Shown here one piece after another: positions 3,988 through 35,430 of a stretch of DNA of 64,000 bases. The stretch lies in assembly GCA_019326865.1 (NCBI GenBank), contig GCA_019326865.1_4101.1. The stretch is one strand, 5' to 3'. Each line of letters starts with the position of its first letter. Position 1 is the stretch's first letter. The stretch is from a phage. The notes below the pieces were generated by a model. The model ran no database searches. It was not told the DNA's origin and saw only the letters and a program-made list of their open reading frames with translations. The translations under genes and the position numbers were made by a program.

Positions 3988-4507
<520 letters not shown>

Positions 4508-4508
4508 A

Positions 4509-4688
4509 ATGACACACAAAGAATGGATGTCCAAACAACATAAAGAACATGATTTCTTTGGGAATGGTATTCGTCAGGTACACTATGACATCTTAAGAGA
4601 TGAAAATCTTTTCAGGTCATATGTTTTGGATACCAGAAAACCCTGGTTTATATGCGAACTGGCATTTAGAAAAACAATCAAACAATGA
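4509..4688 (+). CDS. small protein, MTHxEW family (59 aa)
   Basis: Begins MTHKEWM; ATG 1 nt after upstream stop. Confidence 0.4.
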   Translation: MTHKEWMSKQHKEHDFFGNGIRQVHYDILRDENLFRSYVLDTRKPWFICELAFRKTIKQ

Positions 4689-4782
4689 ATATAGAAAATT
4701 GCGTTAGTGTATCTAAAGCACTTGCATAAATGATTAATTCATTATATAATGATTATCATTGGTTCTAAATGAGGATAATATT

Positions 4783-5055
4783 ATGCATTTTGAAAAATTC
4801 AACACAAGTCGTGACACACGCATTGATGTTCTTTATGAAACACAAGACTCAATTAGTATTCGTACACGTAGTGGTGATGTATATCATGACTGCACTATTG
4901 GTTGGAAACAGGGAAGAACACGTAGTGCAGAATTCGATAATTATCGCTTCTTCCAAGATGACACCACAATCTGGCCTGAAGATGTAGAAGATATTGCAAT
5001 CGAAGATGAACATAAAGATGAATTTATCAAATTTAATCCCCAAACCGAATCATAA
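4783..5055 (+). CDS. hypothetical protein
   Basis: SD GAGGAT before ATG 4783; track ORF 4759..5055 trimmed. Confidence 0.45.
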   Translation: MHFEKFNTSRDTRIDVLYETQDSISIRTRSGDVYHDCTIGWKQGRTRSAEFDNYRFFQDDTTIWPEDVEDIAIEDEHKDEFIKFNPQTES

Positions 5056-5098
5056 ATAATGGGACAGCACAAAAAGATGTGATATAATTATTAGTACT

Positions 5099-5170
5099 GA
5101 GGGGCTAGTTTAACGGATAAAACAGATTCCTTCTAAGAATCCAATCGGAGTTCGATTCTCCGGCCCTTTA
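5099..5170 (+). tRNA. tRNA-Arg (anticodon TCT)
   Basis: Cloverleaf: D-stem GTTT/AAAC, anticodon stem GATTC/GAATC with loop CTTCTAA, T-arm CGGAG-TTCGATT-CTCCG; acceptor with two G-U pairs. Confidence 0.7.
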
Positions 5171-5184
5171 TAAAATATAATATT

Positions 5185-5727
<543 letters not shown>

Positions 5728-5761
5728 TACAATTATATTCCATTAATTAAAAGGGAAAACC

Positions 5762-5926
5762 ATGACCCATGAAGAATGGTTAAGTGAACTAAAGTTCAGA
5801 TACTCCGGCATAGGTAATTGGCGAAAATATCATTGGGAGATTATATCAGACCCAGCAGAATACGATAAACTTATAAATCATGAAGTGTATCCGTGGTTCT
5901 TTATTGAAATAATGGTACGAATATGA
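5762..5926 (+). CDS. small protein, MTHxEW family (54 aa)
   Basis: Begins MTHEEWLSELKFRY; SD AAAGGGAAAA upstream. Confidence 0.45.
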   Translation: MTHEEWLSELKFRYSGIGNWRKYHWEIISDPAEYDKLINHEVYPWFFIEIMVRI

Positions 5927-6083
5927 CGCATGAAGAATGGATGAATGATATTAATTTTAGATATGCAGGTATTGGTAAATGGCTAAAGTATCATTGGGAA
6001 TTCATTTCAAAGTTGCATCTGTATGATAAACTTATCAACGACCCAGAATATAAAAAGTACTTAATTGAACTAATGGTAAGAAT

Positions 6084-6087
<4 letters not shown>
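5923..6087 (+). CDS. small protein, MTHxEW family (54 aa)
   Basis: Begins MTHEEWMNDINFRY; ATGA overlap with upstream stop. Confidence 0.45.
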
Positions 6088-6248
<161 letters not shown>

Positions 6249-6261
6249 TTAAAAAAAAAGC

Positions 6262-6699
<438 letters not shown>

Positions 6700-6708
6700 G
6701 TATTCAAT

Positions 6709-6782
<74 letters not shown>

Positions 6783-6840
6783 AAATTTAATAGGAGATGA
6801 TATGTTTAACGATGAACATCCAGATTTCTAAAAAAAGTTC

Positions 6841-6869
6841 TTGACCAAATAATTCAGAACTGATATCAT
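6841..6869 (+). promoter_or_regulatory. sigma70-type promoter, family A (variant)
   Basis: TTGACC-N17-TATCAT, spacer AAATAATTCAGAACTGA. Confidence 0.45.
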
Positions 6870-6901
6870 GTTTGTATATCAACAACAGAGGGTATATCGA
6901 A

Positions 6902-7141
6902 ATGGGTAAATATTTTGTGAGTTATAGTTATAATGTATCACGAAAAATTCCACGTGGTGACGGAATGGGATGGTCTTATGATGCATATACTTTAAATGAG
7001 TCATGTATCATCGAATTAAAAGAAAAAGACCTTGACATTCTAAAAATCAAACAATATATTCTTGATGTTGAATTGGCACATCGTACTGATATCTATCCAG
7101 ATGTAAATAACATCAGCATCTTAGTACTAACCAAAGTATAA
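6902..7141 (+). CDS. hypothetical protein
   Basis: Track ORF 6872..7141 trimmed to ATG 6902 downstream of promoter. Confidence 0.4.
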   Translation: MGKYFVSYSYNVSRKIPRGDGMGWSYDAYTLNESCIIELKEKDLDILKIKQYILDVELAHRTDIYPDVNNISILVLTKV

Positions 7142-7153
7142 GATAAAAGCACT

Positions 7154-7443
<290 letters not shown>

Positions 7444-7444
7444 T

Positions 7445-7537
<93 letters not shown>

Positions 7538-7554
7538 TTCACATGATATAGGGA

Positions 7555-7816
<262 letters not shown>

Positions 7817-7824
7817 GAATTTAA

Positions 7825-8226
7825 ATGAAAAAGAATGACTTGATCAAAATGCTTCAAGAAATTGACGGCAATCCAGAGATTGTTATTTGGAATGGATACG
7901 TCGATGATTATATGAACATCGAAAAAGGCTTGACTAAAATCACTCTAGTCAAAGAAACCGAACAGTTTCTTCAGGGTGCATTAGAGCACGAATGGTGTGA
8001 ACGTAACAATACATTCGACATTCCAGAAGACCAACGAACCAAGATTGCAGAACGTGCTAAAGAACTGCATAAGAAACGCGAATACGATTTCCAGAACCCA
8101 TATGTCACTGAAGACGAATTCAATCGCTGGTACGGTAAAAAGAAATTGACAAAGTATGTCCTTTCACCTAAACTACGTGGTAAGACTTCACTTGGTGTAT
8201 TCAACGCCGCAGACTTAAACTACTAG
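7825..8226 (+). CDS. hypothetical protein
   Basis: 133-aa ORF, co-oriented. Confidence 0.5.
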   Translation: MKKNDLIKMLQEIDGNPEIVIWNGYVDDYMNIEKGLTKITLVKETEQFLQGALEHEWCERNNTFDIPEDQRTKIAERAKELHKKREYDFQNPYVTEDEFNRWYGKKKLTKYVLSPKLRGKTSLGVFNAADLNY

Positions 8227-8238
8227 CGGGTATTATAA

Positions 8239-8503
<265 letters not shown>

Positions 8504-8547
8504 GATTCCCGATTCAGTAGTTTTAAAGCTGACCCGTATGTGCCTAT

Positions 8548-8589
<42 letters not shown>

Positions 8590-8590
8590 G

Positions 8591-8647
<57 letters not shown>

Positions 8648-8649
8648 TT

Positions 8650-8730
<81 letters not shown>

Positions 8731-8731
8731 G

Positions 8732-8782
<51 letters not shown>

Positions 8783-8799
8783 TACAACCGACAATGACT

Positions 8800-8874
<75 letters not shown>

Positions 8875-8926
8875 TGCCAAACAGCTTGAAGTACTTTGTA
8901 GTGCTGCACCTATGCCGACACTTGGC

Positions 8927-9027
<101 letters not shown>

Positions 9028-9039
9028 TATCTTACTTCT

Positions 9040-9129
<90 letters not shown>

Positions 9130-30867: not shown

Positions 30868-32052
30868 ATGGCTAGTGGGATACGATTAACACAAGAAGAA
30901 GCTGAAAAATTAGTAGCGAATAGATGTTTAGAACAAAATTATACATATAAACCTTTCACTTATATTAACACTAAAACAATATTAGAACTTAAATGTGATA
31001 ACTTTGAACATGAAGAATGGAAATGTAAATTTAGTAAATTCATTTACAAAAGAACTGGGTGTCCAGAATGTAAAGGAAGAAATTCTTTAAAAGAAAAAAC
31101 AGCAAGAACTAAAGTTCATGAAATATGTGAATTAAAAGGATATACTTATGAACCATTTGATTTTAACGGTGCTATAGGAACAAAAATAATAATTCATTGT
31201 GGAGTTGACTCCCATAAACCACATGAAACTAATTATAATTCTTTAGTTAATAAGAAAAATGGATGTATTGAGTGTGGTGGAAAGTTAAAATTAACCCAAC
31301 AACAAGCAGAATTAAATGTAATTAACATATGTAATACTACTGGATATACTTATAAACCTTTTGAATATAAAAATAATAGAACTAAAATTACATTAAAATG
31401 TTGCAATCCAGACCATGATGAATTTAGTTTAAGTTATGATAAATTTGTATATCAAGGTAATGGGTGTGTAAAATGTGGAAATCAATCCACAGCTAGAAAA
31501 CTTTGTCTTTCACAAGATGAATCAATTAAAAGGCTTAATGAAATTTGTACATCTAAAGGATATACTTATAAACCATTTATATATAAAAATGTACATACAT
31601 TAATTACATTAAAATGTTCAGAATGTGAACATCCTGAATGGACAACTCGATATCAAAATATTGTTCAAAAGCAAAGAGGTTGTCCAAGTTGTAGTCGAGG
31701 TGGATATGACCCAAGTAAACCTGGTTATTTTTATATACATCGAGTTCTAGGTAATGGTAGGATATATTATAAATTTGGTATAACAAACAATTATATATAC
31801 AGATTTGAACAATATAATAAGAACTTATTTAGAACTGAAAAATATAAAACATATTACAGTACTGATGGTATTTTAATCAAAGAACTTGAATATTTTATTA
31901 AACATATGAGTGGCATAAAAAGAAAAGTTATTGATAAAATAAATTATTTGGACGGGTATACTGAAACAATCAATGAATCAGAATATGAAAAATTAATAAA
32001 AATAATTGAATCATATAATGTACAAGAACTTGATGTGAACAGTATTAAGTAG
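30868..32052 (+). CDS. GIY-YIG/T5orf172-like nuclease with four N-terminal Cys-containing repeats
   Basis: Four ~60-aa repeats each with YTYKPF and GCPEC/GCIECG/GCVKCG/GCPSC; C-terminal PGYFYIHRV...IYYKFGITNN...RFEQY. Confidence 0.5.
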   Translation: MASGIRLTQEEAEKLVANRCLEQNYTYKPFTYINTKTILELKCDNFEHEEWKCKFSKFIYKRTGCPECKGRNSLKEKTARTKVHEICELKGYTYEPFDFNGAIGTKIIIHCGVDSHKPHETNYNSLVNKKNGCIECGGKLKLTQQQAELNVINICNTTGYTYKPFEYKNNRTKITLKCCNPDHDEFSLSYDKFVYQGNGCVKCGNQSTARKLCLSQDESIKRLNEICTSKGYTYKPFIYKNVHTLITLKCSECEHPEWTTRYQNIVQKQRGCPSCSRGGYDPSKPGYFYIHRVLGNGRIYYKFGITNNYIYRFEQYNKNLFRTEKYKTYYSTDGILIKELEYFIKHMSGIKRKVIDKINYLDGYTETINESEYEKLIKIIESYNVQELDVNSIK

Positions 32053-32095: not shown

Positions 32096-33337
32096 ATGCC
32101 TAGTGATTATAATAATGGTGATATGAAGCACAGAAATGGTGCAATTGTTCAACATTCAAAACGCAAGTCGGAGTACCGCCCTGCTGGAAACTATCATAGT
32201 GGTAGAAAAATGAGTCGTAACCAAAGCACTGGTGCACAAGGTGTAGAAAATGCAAAGCCAGGTGAAGTAACAGATACTTCCAAAATGAATCAACATGAAA
32301 AATTAAAATACATGAATGCTTTGGGATTACTTAATGCTCATCAAAAAGAGCAACTAGCTGCAATGGATAAAGCACAAGAACGACCAGAAGCAGCAGAAGC
32401 CCCCGCACAATCAAAAGCGACTAACCCTGTCAAAGAACTGTCTGATAAGTTAGGTAAGATCTTTGCAAATAAACCCCAACTTATTCAAGGTATTGTCAAA
32501 GAATTGCAATCTGTACCTAAAGAAGAATTAAAAGTCAAAGCACAAGCTGTTCTGGATGCAATGAAAGGAAATACCAGTACTGAACCAACCGAAGTATTCA
32601 GTACTATTATGCGTGCACTGGAAGGTAAACAACAAGGTGAAGAACGTGGTGATGAAGTAAGTCTTGAACGTGTTCTTAAAACATTTGATAGTATTGGGAA
32701 AGAAGACCGTGTTAATGCACAACAGGTTAAAAATGTACTAGCAAAATTGGAAAACCGTCTAGAAGGTAAAGATGATAAGATTAAATTGGTATCCGATGCA
32801 GTTGAAAATGCACTTAAATCTTATGTACAAGGTGAAAAGAGTCGTTTTGTAACTGCTATGGATGCTGCATTCAATACTATGAAAAAGTACGAAGCGGATC
32901 ATGGAGAGAAGGTAACACGAGATGGTTATTTGATGCGTGATGATGAAGAAGGTGCAGTGGAACAGAATGATGTTCATTCTGACGAAGATATTGATGACAT
33001 GGAAGCAGAACTGTCACAGGACCGCCAAATGACTGAAAAATCTCACAATGAACTAAAGAAATTAATGCAGTGGGTTGCAGACGTAGGTGAAAAGGCGGGT
33101 GCTGACAAGAAGAGTATCAACCGAAACCTAAGTTGGATTAAAGATAAGGTTGGTAATAACGCTCGTAAACTACAAAAAGCATGGACTGATGTAGTGAATG
33201 GTGCAGTAGATATTGACGTTGAATCTGGTGAAGCATATGATTATGCATTGATTACACTTGATGATTCTTTTCGTGACTACGAAAAAGGAAACGTGACTCC
33301 TTGGGAAAAAGACATAATGAGCAAATACGGTAAATGA
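32096..33337 (+). CDS. hypothetical hydrophilic Lys/Glu-rich protein
   Basis: 413 aa; SD AAGGAGGG; EKLKYMNALGLLN motif shared with 30405 ORF; visibly higher GC than neighbours. Confidence 0.55.
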   Translation: MPSDYNNGDMKHRNGAIVQHSKRKSEYRPAGNYHSGRKMSRNQSTGAQGVENAKPGEVTDTSKMNQHEKLKYMNALGLLNAHQKEQLAAMDKAQERPEAAEAPAQSKATNPVKELSDKLGKIFANKPQLIQGIVKELQSVPKEELKVKAQAVLDAMKGNTSTEPTEVFSTIMRALEGKQQGEERGDEVSLERVLKTFDSIGKEDRVNAQQVKNVLAKLENRLEGKDDKIKLVSDAVENALKSYVQGEKSRFVTAMDAAFNTMKKYEADHGEKVTRDGYLMRDDEEGAVEQNDVHSDEDIDDMEAELSQDRQMTEKSHNELKKLMQWVADVGEKAGADKKSINRNLSWIKDKVGNNARKLQKAWTDVVNGAVDIDVESGEAYDYALITLDDSFRDYEKGNVTPWEKDIMSKYGK

Positions 33338-33346
33338 TAACAAAAA

Positions 33347-33370
33347 GGTTGACCTCGGTCAGCCTTTTTT
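33347..33370 (+). terminator. rho-independent terminator (GGTTGAC-hairpin family)
   Basis: GGTTGACCTCGGTCAGCC + T6. Confidence 0.65.
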
Positions 33371-33406
33371 GTTATCATAGCTTTCCTAACTACAAAGGAT
33401 GACGTG

Positions 33407-34048
33407 ATGACTAAGCAAGAAATATTCAAAACATTAATTGACATTTTACGTTCATCTAAAACTCGTTGTGCAATGGAGTTTGATATTCCTTACGCTGAAC
33501 GAGTCATCTTTCCACAAGTAAAAGAGGCAGGGCTTACTTTACTTGGTATGGGGATGTACTCTGTAGTAGTTGAACATAAAAACTATCCAGGTCGTGCATT
33601 TAAAGTAACCACGTCACGATGGGATGGTTTTCGTGCTTATGCAAAGTACTGTATTGATAACACAGGAACTAAGTTTCTTCCTGTAATATACAGTGCAAAC
33701 GAGCAAGGAAACTTTGGATGGTATGAGATGGATAAGTACTACCCTATCATTAAACAAAAAAACAATTATGATGACTTTGTTAGCACTAAAATTGGAGATT
33801 TGTATTCGTATGCACATGCTGGTCAGCACGTAACTTCAGTGAATGAACTGCGTGGAAATTCAGAAGAGATTGCAATTGCAACTGTTGTAGCTAACATAAT
33901 GAAAGAGTTTCATGGTCGTTTTGTACCAGACATTCATTCCAGTAATGTAATGATGGATAAAGATGGAAATTTATTCATCACTGACCCTATTTCGTGTGAT
34001 GTACGTCGAGAAATACCAATCACTGAAGAAGACCCAATTTTTTATTGA
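33407..34048 (+). CDS. putative atypical protein kinase-like protein
   Basis: Gly-rich loop LGMGMYSVVV, AFKV lysine strand, catalytic-loop-like DIHSSNVMMDKDG, ITDPI (DFG-like). Confidence 0.4.
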   Translation: MTKQEIFKTLIDILRSSKTRCAMEFDIPYAERVIFPQVKEAGLTLLGMGMYSVVVEHKNYPGRAFKVTTSRWDGFRAYAKYCIDNTGTKFLPVIYSANEQGNFGWYEMDKYYPIIKQKNNYDDFVSTKIGDLYSYAHAGQHVTSVNELRGNSEEIAIATVVANIMKEFHGRFVPDIHSSNVMMDKDGNLFITDPISCDVRREIPITEEDPIFY

Positions 34049-34111
34049 CAGAACTTGTGTTCTGGTGTATATTAAGTGAATTATAAACAAATTGTGACAC
34101 AGGATTAAATC

Positions 34112-34393
34112 ATGCGTTCATTTGAAAACTTAATAGGTAAACTTCTTTTATCTGAAATTAGTGAAGACGTTAAGGAATTATGCAAATCAAAAAGTTACAT
34201 TCATTTGGATGAACTGTTTGTTAAGTACGGAGAGATTAGTTTTAAATCATTATTTGTTTTTACTATGAAAGTACATAGTTTAAAGTACTTCGATTTAAGT
34301 TATAAAAATGGTCAACCAAATCTTTATCATATGTATTATCTCAAGAATATAGAAGAAGCTCATATCTTATTTTCTGAATATCTGAAGGTATAA
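34112..34393 (+). CDS. hypothetical protein
   Basis: 93-aa ORF. Confidence 0.45.
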   Translation: MRSFENLIGKLLLSEISEDVKELCKSKSYIHLDELFVKYGEISFKSLFVFTMKVHSLKYFDLSYKNGQPNLYHMYYLKNIEEAHILFSEYLKV

Positions 34394-34394
34394 A

Positions 34395-34733
34395 ATGGAA
34401 CAATATTTTGAATTAGTTAATAAAGTGTCATTCTATGTAGTGTCATTGATTTGGGTTTATTTCATGTTTTGCTACATTATTGCATTCTTCCGATATACTA
34501 CTTTATATGAACGTATCTATTATGATGCACCAATTTCATTCTTGGTGTTCTGTGCATGTACCTTGGGAATATTAGAAGTACTGATATGTGGATATAGTAC
34601 TGATGGATTAAATCTGGTATCGGTATTGACTGGGTTATCACTTGGTGTTATGATATCTTTCTTTCCAGTATGGTTGTTCTTTGAACTGATCCATCGCATT
34701 GATGTATGGCGTTCTAATATCCCTGAAAAATAA
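34395..34733 (+). CDS. small 3-TM membrane protein, family member
   Basis: Three hydrophobic helices, basic C-terminal tail ...RSNIPEK. Confidence 0.55.
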   Translation: MEQYFELVNKVSFYVVSLIWVYFMFCYIIAFFRYTTLYERIYYDAPISFLVFCACTLGILEVLICGYSTDGLNLVSVLTGLSLGVMISFFPVWLFFELIHRIDVWRSNIPEK

Positions 34734-34736
34734 GGA

Positions 34737-35084
34737 TTGATAATGATTTATTACACTAACGTGTTTGCCTATGCTGTTGCTTGCATTTACATTGTTTACT
34801 TCTTATTTGGTGGAGTGCTTTGCTTCTTTAAGTACAAAACACTGTTTAATAGGATGTATCCAAATCATCCTATTGTAGTTGTACTTTTGATTCTTTCTCT
34901 TTCCCAAATAATCGTTGAAACTACATTGGGTATCAGTAGTGTACATTATAGTTTTGGCACTATAGTAATTATTACTATGCTTATTGCATACATTTTAGTA
35001 CTTGGATATGGTATATTTGGTAATGTTGGAATGAAAATGTATCATCGAATTAAAACCTTACGTGATAATCTACCGGAGCGTTAA
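34737..35084 (+). CDS. small 3-TM membrane protein, family member
   Basis: Paralog; C-terminus ...LRDNLPER. Confidence 0.55.
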   Translation: MIMIYYTNVFAYAVACIYIVYFLFGGVLCFFKYKTLFNRMYPNHPIVVVLLILSLSQIIVETTLGISSVHYSFGTIVIITMLIAYILVLGYGIFGNVGMKMYHRIKTLRDNLPER

Positions 35085-35085
35085 G

Positions 35086-35430
35086 ATGTATAATTTAAAC
35101 CTAATCTCATATATTATAACAACCCTGTTTACATTTTATGTCTATGTTGGTATAATCCTACTGTACTTTAAATTTTATAAAGTGTTTAACCGTTTCTATC
35201 CTTCAATGGAGAATGAGTTCTTCTTTGTGTTGTACGTCTGCTACACGCTAATGGCTACTTGTTTCACTGTAGTTGATGGTATCATTGGTATTAAAGCAGA
35301 TGGACCAAATGGTAGTACGCTGGTTGCATTTATTCTTACCGGATTCTTGGCAACTTATATTACCTTCATTTCAACATGGTCAGTGGTTGAATTTCTCTTA
35401 CGACTACGAAAGAATATGCCGAATCGATAG
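35086..35430 (+). CDS. small 3-TM membrane protein, family member
   Basis: Paralog; C-terminus ...LRKNMPNR; ATG 35086 after SD GGAGCG. Confidence 0.55.
   Translation: MYNLNLISYIITTLFTFYVYVGIILLYFKFYKVFNRFYPSMENEFFFVLYVCYTLMATCFTVVDGIIGIKADGPNGSTLVAFILTGFLATYITFISTWSVVEFLLRLRKNMPNR

Follow-up and report, generated by a model that had tools for sequence, protein, structure and literature searches.

The window, by which we mean the whole 64,000-nucleotide stretch of phage DNA analyzed here, belongs to an Asteriusvirus jumbo coliphage with a genome of about 350 kb. A megablast search with positions 33,000–34,400 matched 27 phage records, all from jumbo (310–380 kb) Escherichia or Salmonella phages, with Escherichia phage UE-S1 as the best match (97.4% nucleotide identity over 100% of the query). 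The records of UE-S1, G17 and Sharanji assign these phages to the genus Asteriusvirus. The first-pass annotation of this DNA had been written with T4 in mind, a premise that is wrong in view of the match to UE-S1. The gene under study, a kinase gene at 33407–34048 on the plus strand, sits in a long run of small, early-type plus-strand genes with tRNA genes. Seven of the latter are clustered at 4194–9119 (Gly-TCC twice, Arg-TCT, Met-CAT, Asn-GTT, Thr-TGT and a ‘tRNA-Ser’ with an ACT anticodon). This 92-nt ‘tRNA-Ser’ is an unusual call that would read AGT only; UE-S1 has a tRNA-Ser at the matching place. The region directly upstream of the kinase gene holds a virion structural protein gene (32096–33337; PHROG 20398, E = 1e-149), preceded by an ORF of 394 amino acids (30868–32052) that matches PHROG 681 (E = 2.5e-66) and the HNH endonuclease family PHROG 559. 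The latter ORF contains three to four CapR-homology/treble-clef zinc-finger repeats (G-Y-T-Y-K-P-F ... C-x-x-C) and a C-terminal endonuclease-type domain, and is probably a homing-endonuclease-like gene. In the UE-S1 record, a sigma-70-family sigma factor and an HNH endonuclease are annotated in the upstream region. Directly downstream of the kinase gene lie three tandem paralogues of 112–122 amino acids (34395–34733, 34737–35084 and 35083–35430), which belong to PHROG 19285 (unknown function). All three are hydrophobic, seem to be membrane proteins with several transmembrane passes and end in ...R..N(I/L/M)P(E/N)(K/R).

The kinase ORF runs from an ATG at 33407 to a TGA stop codon at 34046–34048 and encodes a single-domain protein kinase of the T7 gp0.7 family (213 amino acids, 24.5 kDa, pI 5.8). 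An in-frame GTG at 33404, upstream of this ATG, is GTA in phages G17 and Sharanji, and therefore the ATG at 33407 is the conserved start. The Shine-Dalgarno sequence AAGGA can be read 7 nt 5′ of the ATG (33395–33399, plus strand), and a ribosome-binding site (RBS) is annotated at the equivalent site of UE-S1. Between the gene and its G17 and Sharanji orthologues, 42 codon differences are synonymous and 13 non-synonymous, the latter being mostly conservative and none of them affecting a family-invariant residue, which indicates that the gene is under purifying selection.

The kinase gene is preceded by a compact regulatory cassette. The hairpin GGTTGACCTCGGTCAGCC, followed by a T-run (33347–33369, plus strand), is the intrinsic terminator of the upstream virion structural protein gene; a terminator is annotated here in UE-S1 and G17, and the motif is kept in four phages. 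In the 5′ arm of the hairpin, a −35-like TTGACC opens a sigma70-type promoter-like site (TTGACC-18 nt-TG-n-TATCAT; 33349–33378, plus strand) that scores 10/12 in a promoter scan, has an extended −10 TG and would serve as the early promoter for the kinase. Seven copies of the terminator hairpin occur on the plus strand of the window, versus zero expected. They start at 19883, 28001, 30798, 33347, 37860, 41256 and 42540, are about 23 nt long with a further 15 nt or so downstream, and follow the consensus GGTTGACTT(C/A)GGTCAGCC(C), then a T-run. In all seven, a TATAAT-like box lies at constant spacing, about 18 nt after TTGAC, followed by an RBS and an ATG. As far as their sequence goes, these cassettes look like a combined intrinsic terminator and sigma70 promoter, recalling the promoter-early stem-loops (PeSLs) of T4-type phages. 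Promoter-like sites overall show no enrichment in the region (30 found versus 30.4 in shuffled sequences). The cassette before the kinase gene is kept in UE-S1, G17 and Sharanji, although G17 and Sharanji, like 121Q, have three additional small genes inserted between the structural protein gene and the cassette. Such variation among relatives in the gene content between cassettes suggests that boundaries of modules or of recombination lie at the cassettes. Because a match to the sigma70 consensus is embedded in a conserved terminator cassette, the arrangement suggests that the kinase gene is transcribed early by the host RNA polymerase, as would parallel gene 0.7 of phage T7, which is transcribed from early host promoters. 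Another promoter-like site (TTGACA-17 nt-TATATT; 34045–34073, plus strand; scan score 11/12) overlaps the kinase stop codon and has in its spacer a 6-bp hairpin (34049–34064) without a T-run. Judged by this match, it probably serves the downstream gene cluster.

The ORF had been proposed to encode a candidate atypical protein kinase. This proposal, drawn from motifs alone, proves correct: profile matches, BLASTP, motif alignment and predicted fold all support a real, intact protein kinase of the T7 gp0.7 family (T7K; PHROG 2828/PHA00451), and the membership is a matter of direct observation. Over its full length the ORF matches phrog_15752 (protein kinase; E = 4.5e-88), and it further matches phrog_2828 (serine-threonine kinase, T7K family; E = 2.7e-17), the profile that contains T7 gp0.7 and served as the search model in Bartolec et al. 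(PMC13645617). BLASTP aligns it to T7 gp0.7 with 27% identity over 162 residues (E = 9e-11) and to T3 gp0.7 with an E-value of 9e-16. In a tblastn search against 50,697 phage records, 733 records were matched, 23 with at least 80% identity (Asteriusvirus) and 710 with less than 60%. The latter group includes more jumbo phages, for example Klebsiella phage fENko-Kae01 (58.5%), along with hundreds of Autographiviridae genes labelled serine-threonine kinase (E = 1e-7 to 1e-15). When 1.84 billion representatives were searched exhaustively with a profile, there were 14 clusters at E ≤ 1e-30, which make up the jumbophage-type clade, 436 at E ≤ 1e-10 and 2433 at E ≤ 1e-3. A Pfam-A scan of the ORF gave no match even at E ≤ 10, PF00069 (Pkinase) included, a null result that is uninformative since T7 gp0.7 itself is likewise unmatched in the same Pfam copy. 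The precomputed Pfam label carried by all homologues, PF27024.1, is absent from the Pfam-A copy scanned. The NCBIfam scan of the ORF yielded noise only (SurA, E = 0.0097, far below the cut-off) and the PADLOC scan of the ORF yielded nothing.

The ORF at 33407–34048 and all four motifs quoted from it in the first-pass annotation are indeed present where that annotation had placed them (L46-GMGMY-S52VVV, R63-AFK66-V, D175-IHSSN180-VMMDKDG and I191-TD193PI), and such a motif set at the expected places is far beyond chance. All four lie on the plus strand. The glycine-rich loop that binds the ATP phosphates, L46-G47-M-G49-M-Y51, is encoded at 33542–33559, and the β3 (VAIK-type) lysine, K66, at 33602–33604. 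Both hold up as originally read: G47 and G49 align with T7K G74 and G76, K66 aligns with the T7K β3 lysine, the residues are invariant, and they fall on the expected strands of the predicted structure. In T7K, G76F is a catalytic-dead mutant (PMC13645617). The catalytic loop, D175-I-H177-S-S-N180 (33929–33946), corresponds in the alignment to D195-M-H197-S-G-N200 of T7K and is at the expected place in the model. The reading of ITDPI as standing in the DFG position is confirmed as well, since D193-P-I aligns with the DPV that occupies this position in T7K (residues 213–215, followed by Ser216; PMC13645617) and lies just after a model strand. The resulting DPV-like, DFG-equivalent Mg-binding motif D193-P194-I195-S196 (33983–33994) includes the equivalent of Ser216. 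Across 28 jumbophage-type homologues and T7/T3 gp0.7, G47, G49, K66, D175, H177, N180, T192, D193 and P194 are invariant; the full set of invariant columns between the window protein, its jumbophage-type relatives and T7/T3 gp0.7 comprises G42, G47, G49, H57, K66, D73, Y78, C82, P92, D175, H177, N180, M182, I191, T192, D193 and P194. The canonical HRD, DFG and APE motifs are absent from the window kinase, which has P-D-I-H for HRD and D-P-I for DFG.

The D-x-H-x-x-N loop had been likened to that of lipid kinases. The catalytic loop of PI3K and PI4K reads D-R-H-x-x-N, which D-I-H-S-S-N resembles, and a lipid kinase of the PI3K/PI4K type would account for this likeness. We nevertheless reject this reading, to which we give next to no credence: no such lipid kinase is found among the top PDB fold matches, there is no corresponding Pfam match, and the D-x-H-x-x-N spacing is the only thing in common. 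The assignment as a catalytic loop stands, but the loop is that of the T7K family rather than of the lipid-kinase type. It is also highly improbable that the protein, as a pseudokinase or ATP-binding scaffold, is no longer catalytic and works through binding to a host protein. Its very small size and lack of an activation segment, and the pseudokinases among its fold matches, are in keeping with that idea. Pseudokinases, however, typically lack at least one of the catalytic residues, whereas here the glycines of the G-loop, the β3 lysine, the catalytic aspartate and the Mg-binding asparagine and aspartate are all invariant in the clade.

S196, aligned with T7K S216, deserves separate mention. 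Ser216 is the reported inhibitory autophosphorylation site of T7K and is described as conserved in all variants, while the third residue of DPV is said to be less conserved among jumbophage homologues (Bartolec et al., PMC13645617). In our alignment of 22 homologues, the Asteriusvirus sequences and one more retain a serine behind D-P-x, and most of the other jumbophage-type homologues have a glycine or alanine at this position, including protein P0010 from a Salmonella-associated 350-kb contig. On these aligned sequences, a serine at position 196 is not a family-wide feature.

Structure prediction against kinase folds, the check set in advance, yielded a kinase-like fold with motif positions compatible with a bilobal kinase. 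The AlphaFold2 model, built from a 28-sequence alignment, has a mean pLDDT of 93.0 and a pTM of 0.88, and it is bilobal. Three N-terminal helices precede strands 44–48, 52–56 and 63–68 and a helix in the αC position (75–84), after which strands 94–100 and 103–109, a small hairpin, helices 127–139 and 152–168 and four short C-terminal strands (172–174, 181–183, 189–191 and 195–198) follow. The G-loop lies between strands 44–48 and 52–56, K66 within strand 63–68, the catalytic loop between strands 172–174 and 181–183, and D193 directly after strand 189–191; in this model, all four are placed as in a protein kinase. No helix occurs in the model after residue 168 and the chain stops 20 residues past D193, so that the activation segment and the αF–αI subdomains are missing, as they are in T7K. 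Foldseek returned 164 PDB matches at E ≤ 1e-3, mostly protein kinases (DMPK, MEK1, ROCK, CHK1, aPKC) with TMq values of 0.35–0.43. Among the predicted viral structures of BFVD, the top match is a 60%-identical, 213-amino-acid orthologue (TM 0.90), and ranks 2–11 are mostly Autographiviridae models annotated ‘protein kinase’ (E = 3e-14 to 1e-11; TMq up to 0.76). Sequence searches of the PDB, whether run with the protein alone or with a profile including T7/T3, retrieved no significant relative; hence, there is no solved structure for the T7K family.

The fold matches further include, with similar or lower scores, aminoglycoside phosphotransferases (APHs) and Ark1, a minimal RNA kinase from archaea. 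They would be the models for a small-molecule kinase of the APH/choline-kinase type, acting for example on antibiotics, nucleotide precursors or sugars of the cell envelope, and for a nucleic-acid (RNA) kinase, respectively. We regard the former as very unlikely: the T7-type kinases are closer in both sequence and structure (TM 0.69–0.76 versus about 0.38), and the Brenner-type motif H-x-D-x-x-x-x-N is absent, with V-P-D-I-H-S-S-N in its place. Moreover, the T7-type relatives are experimentally established protein kinases with an equally truncated C-lobe (PMC13645617). An Ark1-like activity on RNA appears extremely unlikely.

Relative to its T7 counterpart, the window kinase is shortened at both ends. 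Its N-terminus has about 27 residues fewer than that of T7K, and it stops 17 residues after S196, where T7 and T3 gp0.7 run on for more than 120 residues. In T7K, residues 1–242 form the kinase domain and residues 243–359 the shut-off (SO) domain, a DNA-binding part that steers the enzyme toward nucleic-acid-binding substrates (PMC13645617). The alignment with T7/T3 gp0.7 reveals that this C-terminal SO/DNA-binding domain is absent from the window kinase. Bartolec et al. (PMC13645617) report both that T7K can do without the SO domain for its kinase activity and that this domain has been lost in jumbophage variants. Since the domain is dispensable in this sense, its absence represents a variant of the domain architecture and is compatible with membership in the kinase family. 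A conserved acidic tail, D-[VL]-R-R-E-I-P-[VI]-T-E-E-D-P, is specific to the jumbophage proteins. The missing domain does bear on annotation. The RefSeq product name in 121Q and PBECO4, ‘protein kinase; inhibitor of host transcription; positively regulates RNaseIII; negatively on RNaseE’, is wording transferred from T7 gp0.7 and is an over-annotation. In particular, ‘inhibitor of host transcription’ is unsupported for the window kinase, as this is a function of the SO domain in T7. For the same reason, the lack of the DNA-binding SO domain by which T7K is guided to nucleic-acid-binding substrates and DNA-related defence systems, an anti-defence role cannot simply be transferred from T7K.

What we infer for enzymatic activity, expression timing, substrates and anti-defence role is that the protein is very probably a minimal (213 amino acids), catalytically intact kinase of the T7K family that would be constitutively active, weakly selective and expressed early, and that would phosphorylate host and phage proteins. 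By homology, ATP-Mg would be held between a five-stranded N-lobe and the truncated C-lobe, with ATP-Mg2+ under the G47–Y51 loop and its phosphates contacted by K66 of β3. The invariant D73, where the αC-like helix begins, is a possible partner of K66. D175 would act as the catalytic base, and N180 and D193 would bind Mg2+. By analogy with T7K, P194 in the place of the DFG phenylalanine may hold the enzyme in an always-on, ‘DFG-in’ state. For T7K, a DFG-in-like active lock that is turned off by autophosphorylation of Ser216 was proposed from an AlphaFold3 model (Bartolec et al., PMC13645617), and S196 could act as a similar inhibitory switch. Because the protein lacks an activation segment, a substrate-docking lobe and the SO domain, it is expected to be a Ser/Thr(/Tyr) kinase with constitutive activity, weak selectivity and no tether to DNA. 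Expressed early by the host RNA polymerase, it would phosphorylate host proteins, and phage proteins as well, and the phosphorylation of host proteins may reprogram the cell, blunt its defence systems or both. Among its relatives, T7K counters Retron-Eco9 and DarTG1, and the T7K-like kinase JSS1_004 reportedly counters the Dnd system. We entertain more tentatively, as a possible but rather doubtful alternative, that the kinase has no hyperpromiscuous, DNA-focused role in the style of T7K and instead acts on distinct, narrower or differently localized substrates, such as the translation or RNA-processing machinery or phage early proteins, with the Ser196 switch kept in the Asteriusvirus branch only. 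The absence of the DNA-tethering SO domain together with the clade-specific acidic tail brings a distinct substrate set into consideration, and the glycine or alanine of most other jumbophage-type homologues is the reason to limit the switch to this branch.

The kinase call itself is already known from GenBank annotation and two publications, and the novelty implied by the first-pass annotation is not borne out, as orthologues have been both annotated and published as T7K homologues. G17_00108, 94% identical to the window kinase, is annotated as ‘putative protein kinase’ with the conserved domain PHA00451, and UE-S1_179, 121Q gp205 and several other syntenic genes carry a ‘protein kinase’ annotation. 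The Sharanji genome paper (2025, PMC11895373) describes WNN14432.1, which is the syntenic orthologue of the window kinase, as homologous to the T7 kinase and potentially able to compromise host immunity. Jumbophage homologues of T7K are also described in Bartolec et al. (Nature 2026, PMC13645617), with the homologues given in Supplementary Table 8; the ‘Escherichia phage G17’ homologue is tied to G17_00108 via the GenBank annotation of G17. Recent work has shown that T7K-family phage kinases phosphorylate nearly all of the host proteome and disable defence systems linked to DNA, and a depletion of Ser, Thr and Tyr in early proteins is a signature of promiscuous T7K in Autographiviridae. Against this background, the jumbophage kinase is a natural ‘kinase-domain-only’ variant of T7K. 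Its substrates would test the share of the DNA-binding domain in the anti-defence activity of T7K, and would show whether giant phages use a broad phosphorylation strategy too.

Among known systems, the window kinase is set apart from the eukaryotic-type Ser/Thr kinases (e.g., PknB, 1MRU; DRAK1, 7QUE; MEK1), which have a domain of more than 250 amino acids versus about 213 here, and which possess the H-R-D motif, the DFG phenylalanine, the activation loop/APE and αF–αI that the window kinase lacks. A second, unrelated-looking mini-kinase of Asteriusvirus, Sharanji gp063 (WNN14351.1; similar to RaK2 H6X4G3), has about 194 amino acids and only distant similarity (BLASTP E = 5e-4 over the catalytic loop). 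Its motifs are more like those of eukaryotic-type kinases (I-G-A-G-S-S, V-I-K-V, R-D-I-R-K-Q-N and D-Y-G) and it has a weak match to Pfam Pkinase (E = 0.0024). In Sharanji, its gene (L007:27-611, minus strand) lies about 46 kb from the kinase gene, and a search of the window for a counterpart found it absent. A RaK2 protein of the same length as Sharanji gp063 appears at rank 40 of the BFVD fold matches. T7K-like mini-kinase domains are also encountered in tandem: the metagenomic proteins P0035 (1021 amino acids) and P0038 (1343 amino acids) contain at least five per polypeptide, each with its own G-loop, lysine, D-x-H/x-x-x-N loop and [ITS]-D-P motif, and with a conserved linker between domains. 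Five further proteins of 776–849 amino acids match in three to five stretches. The available text of the T7K paper (PMC13645617) makes no mention of such ‘poly-kinase’ architectures.

Within the T7K family, JSS1_004 of Salmonella phage JSS1 and the Bas68 kinase, both reported to be non-specific and to have anti-defence activity (against Dnd), are Autographiviridae proteins that are much nearer to T7K than the window kinase is. T7K (UniProt P00513) and T3 gp0.7 are seryl/threonyl protein kinases whose kinase domain is homologous to the window protein. They have the motifs G-x-G-x-[FY]-S, [IF]-K-V, D-x-H-S-x-N and T-D-P-[VI]-S in common with it, as well as the truncated C-lobe, and the window gene may, like theirs, be an early gene read from promoters of the host RNA polymerase, yet the identity is only 25–27%. 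The whole SO/DNA-binding domain of T7K, about 117 amino acids, has no part in the window kinase, and the two are encoded in very different settings, a 40-kb podovirus genome for T7K versus a 350-kb myovirus-type genome here. The closest known counterparts are the Asteriusvirus orthologues 121Q gp205, the PBECO4 protein, G17_00108 (QBO61604.1), Sharanji gp144 (WNN14432.1) and UE-S1_179 (UTS53547.1), which are syntenic, share the upstream cassette and have 94–98% protein identity to the window kinase, differing from it by a few conservative substitutions.
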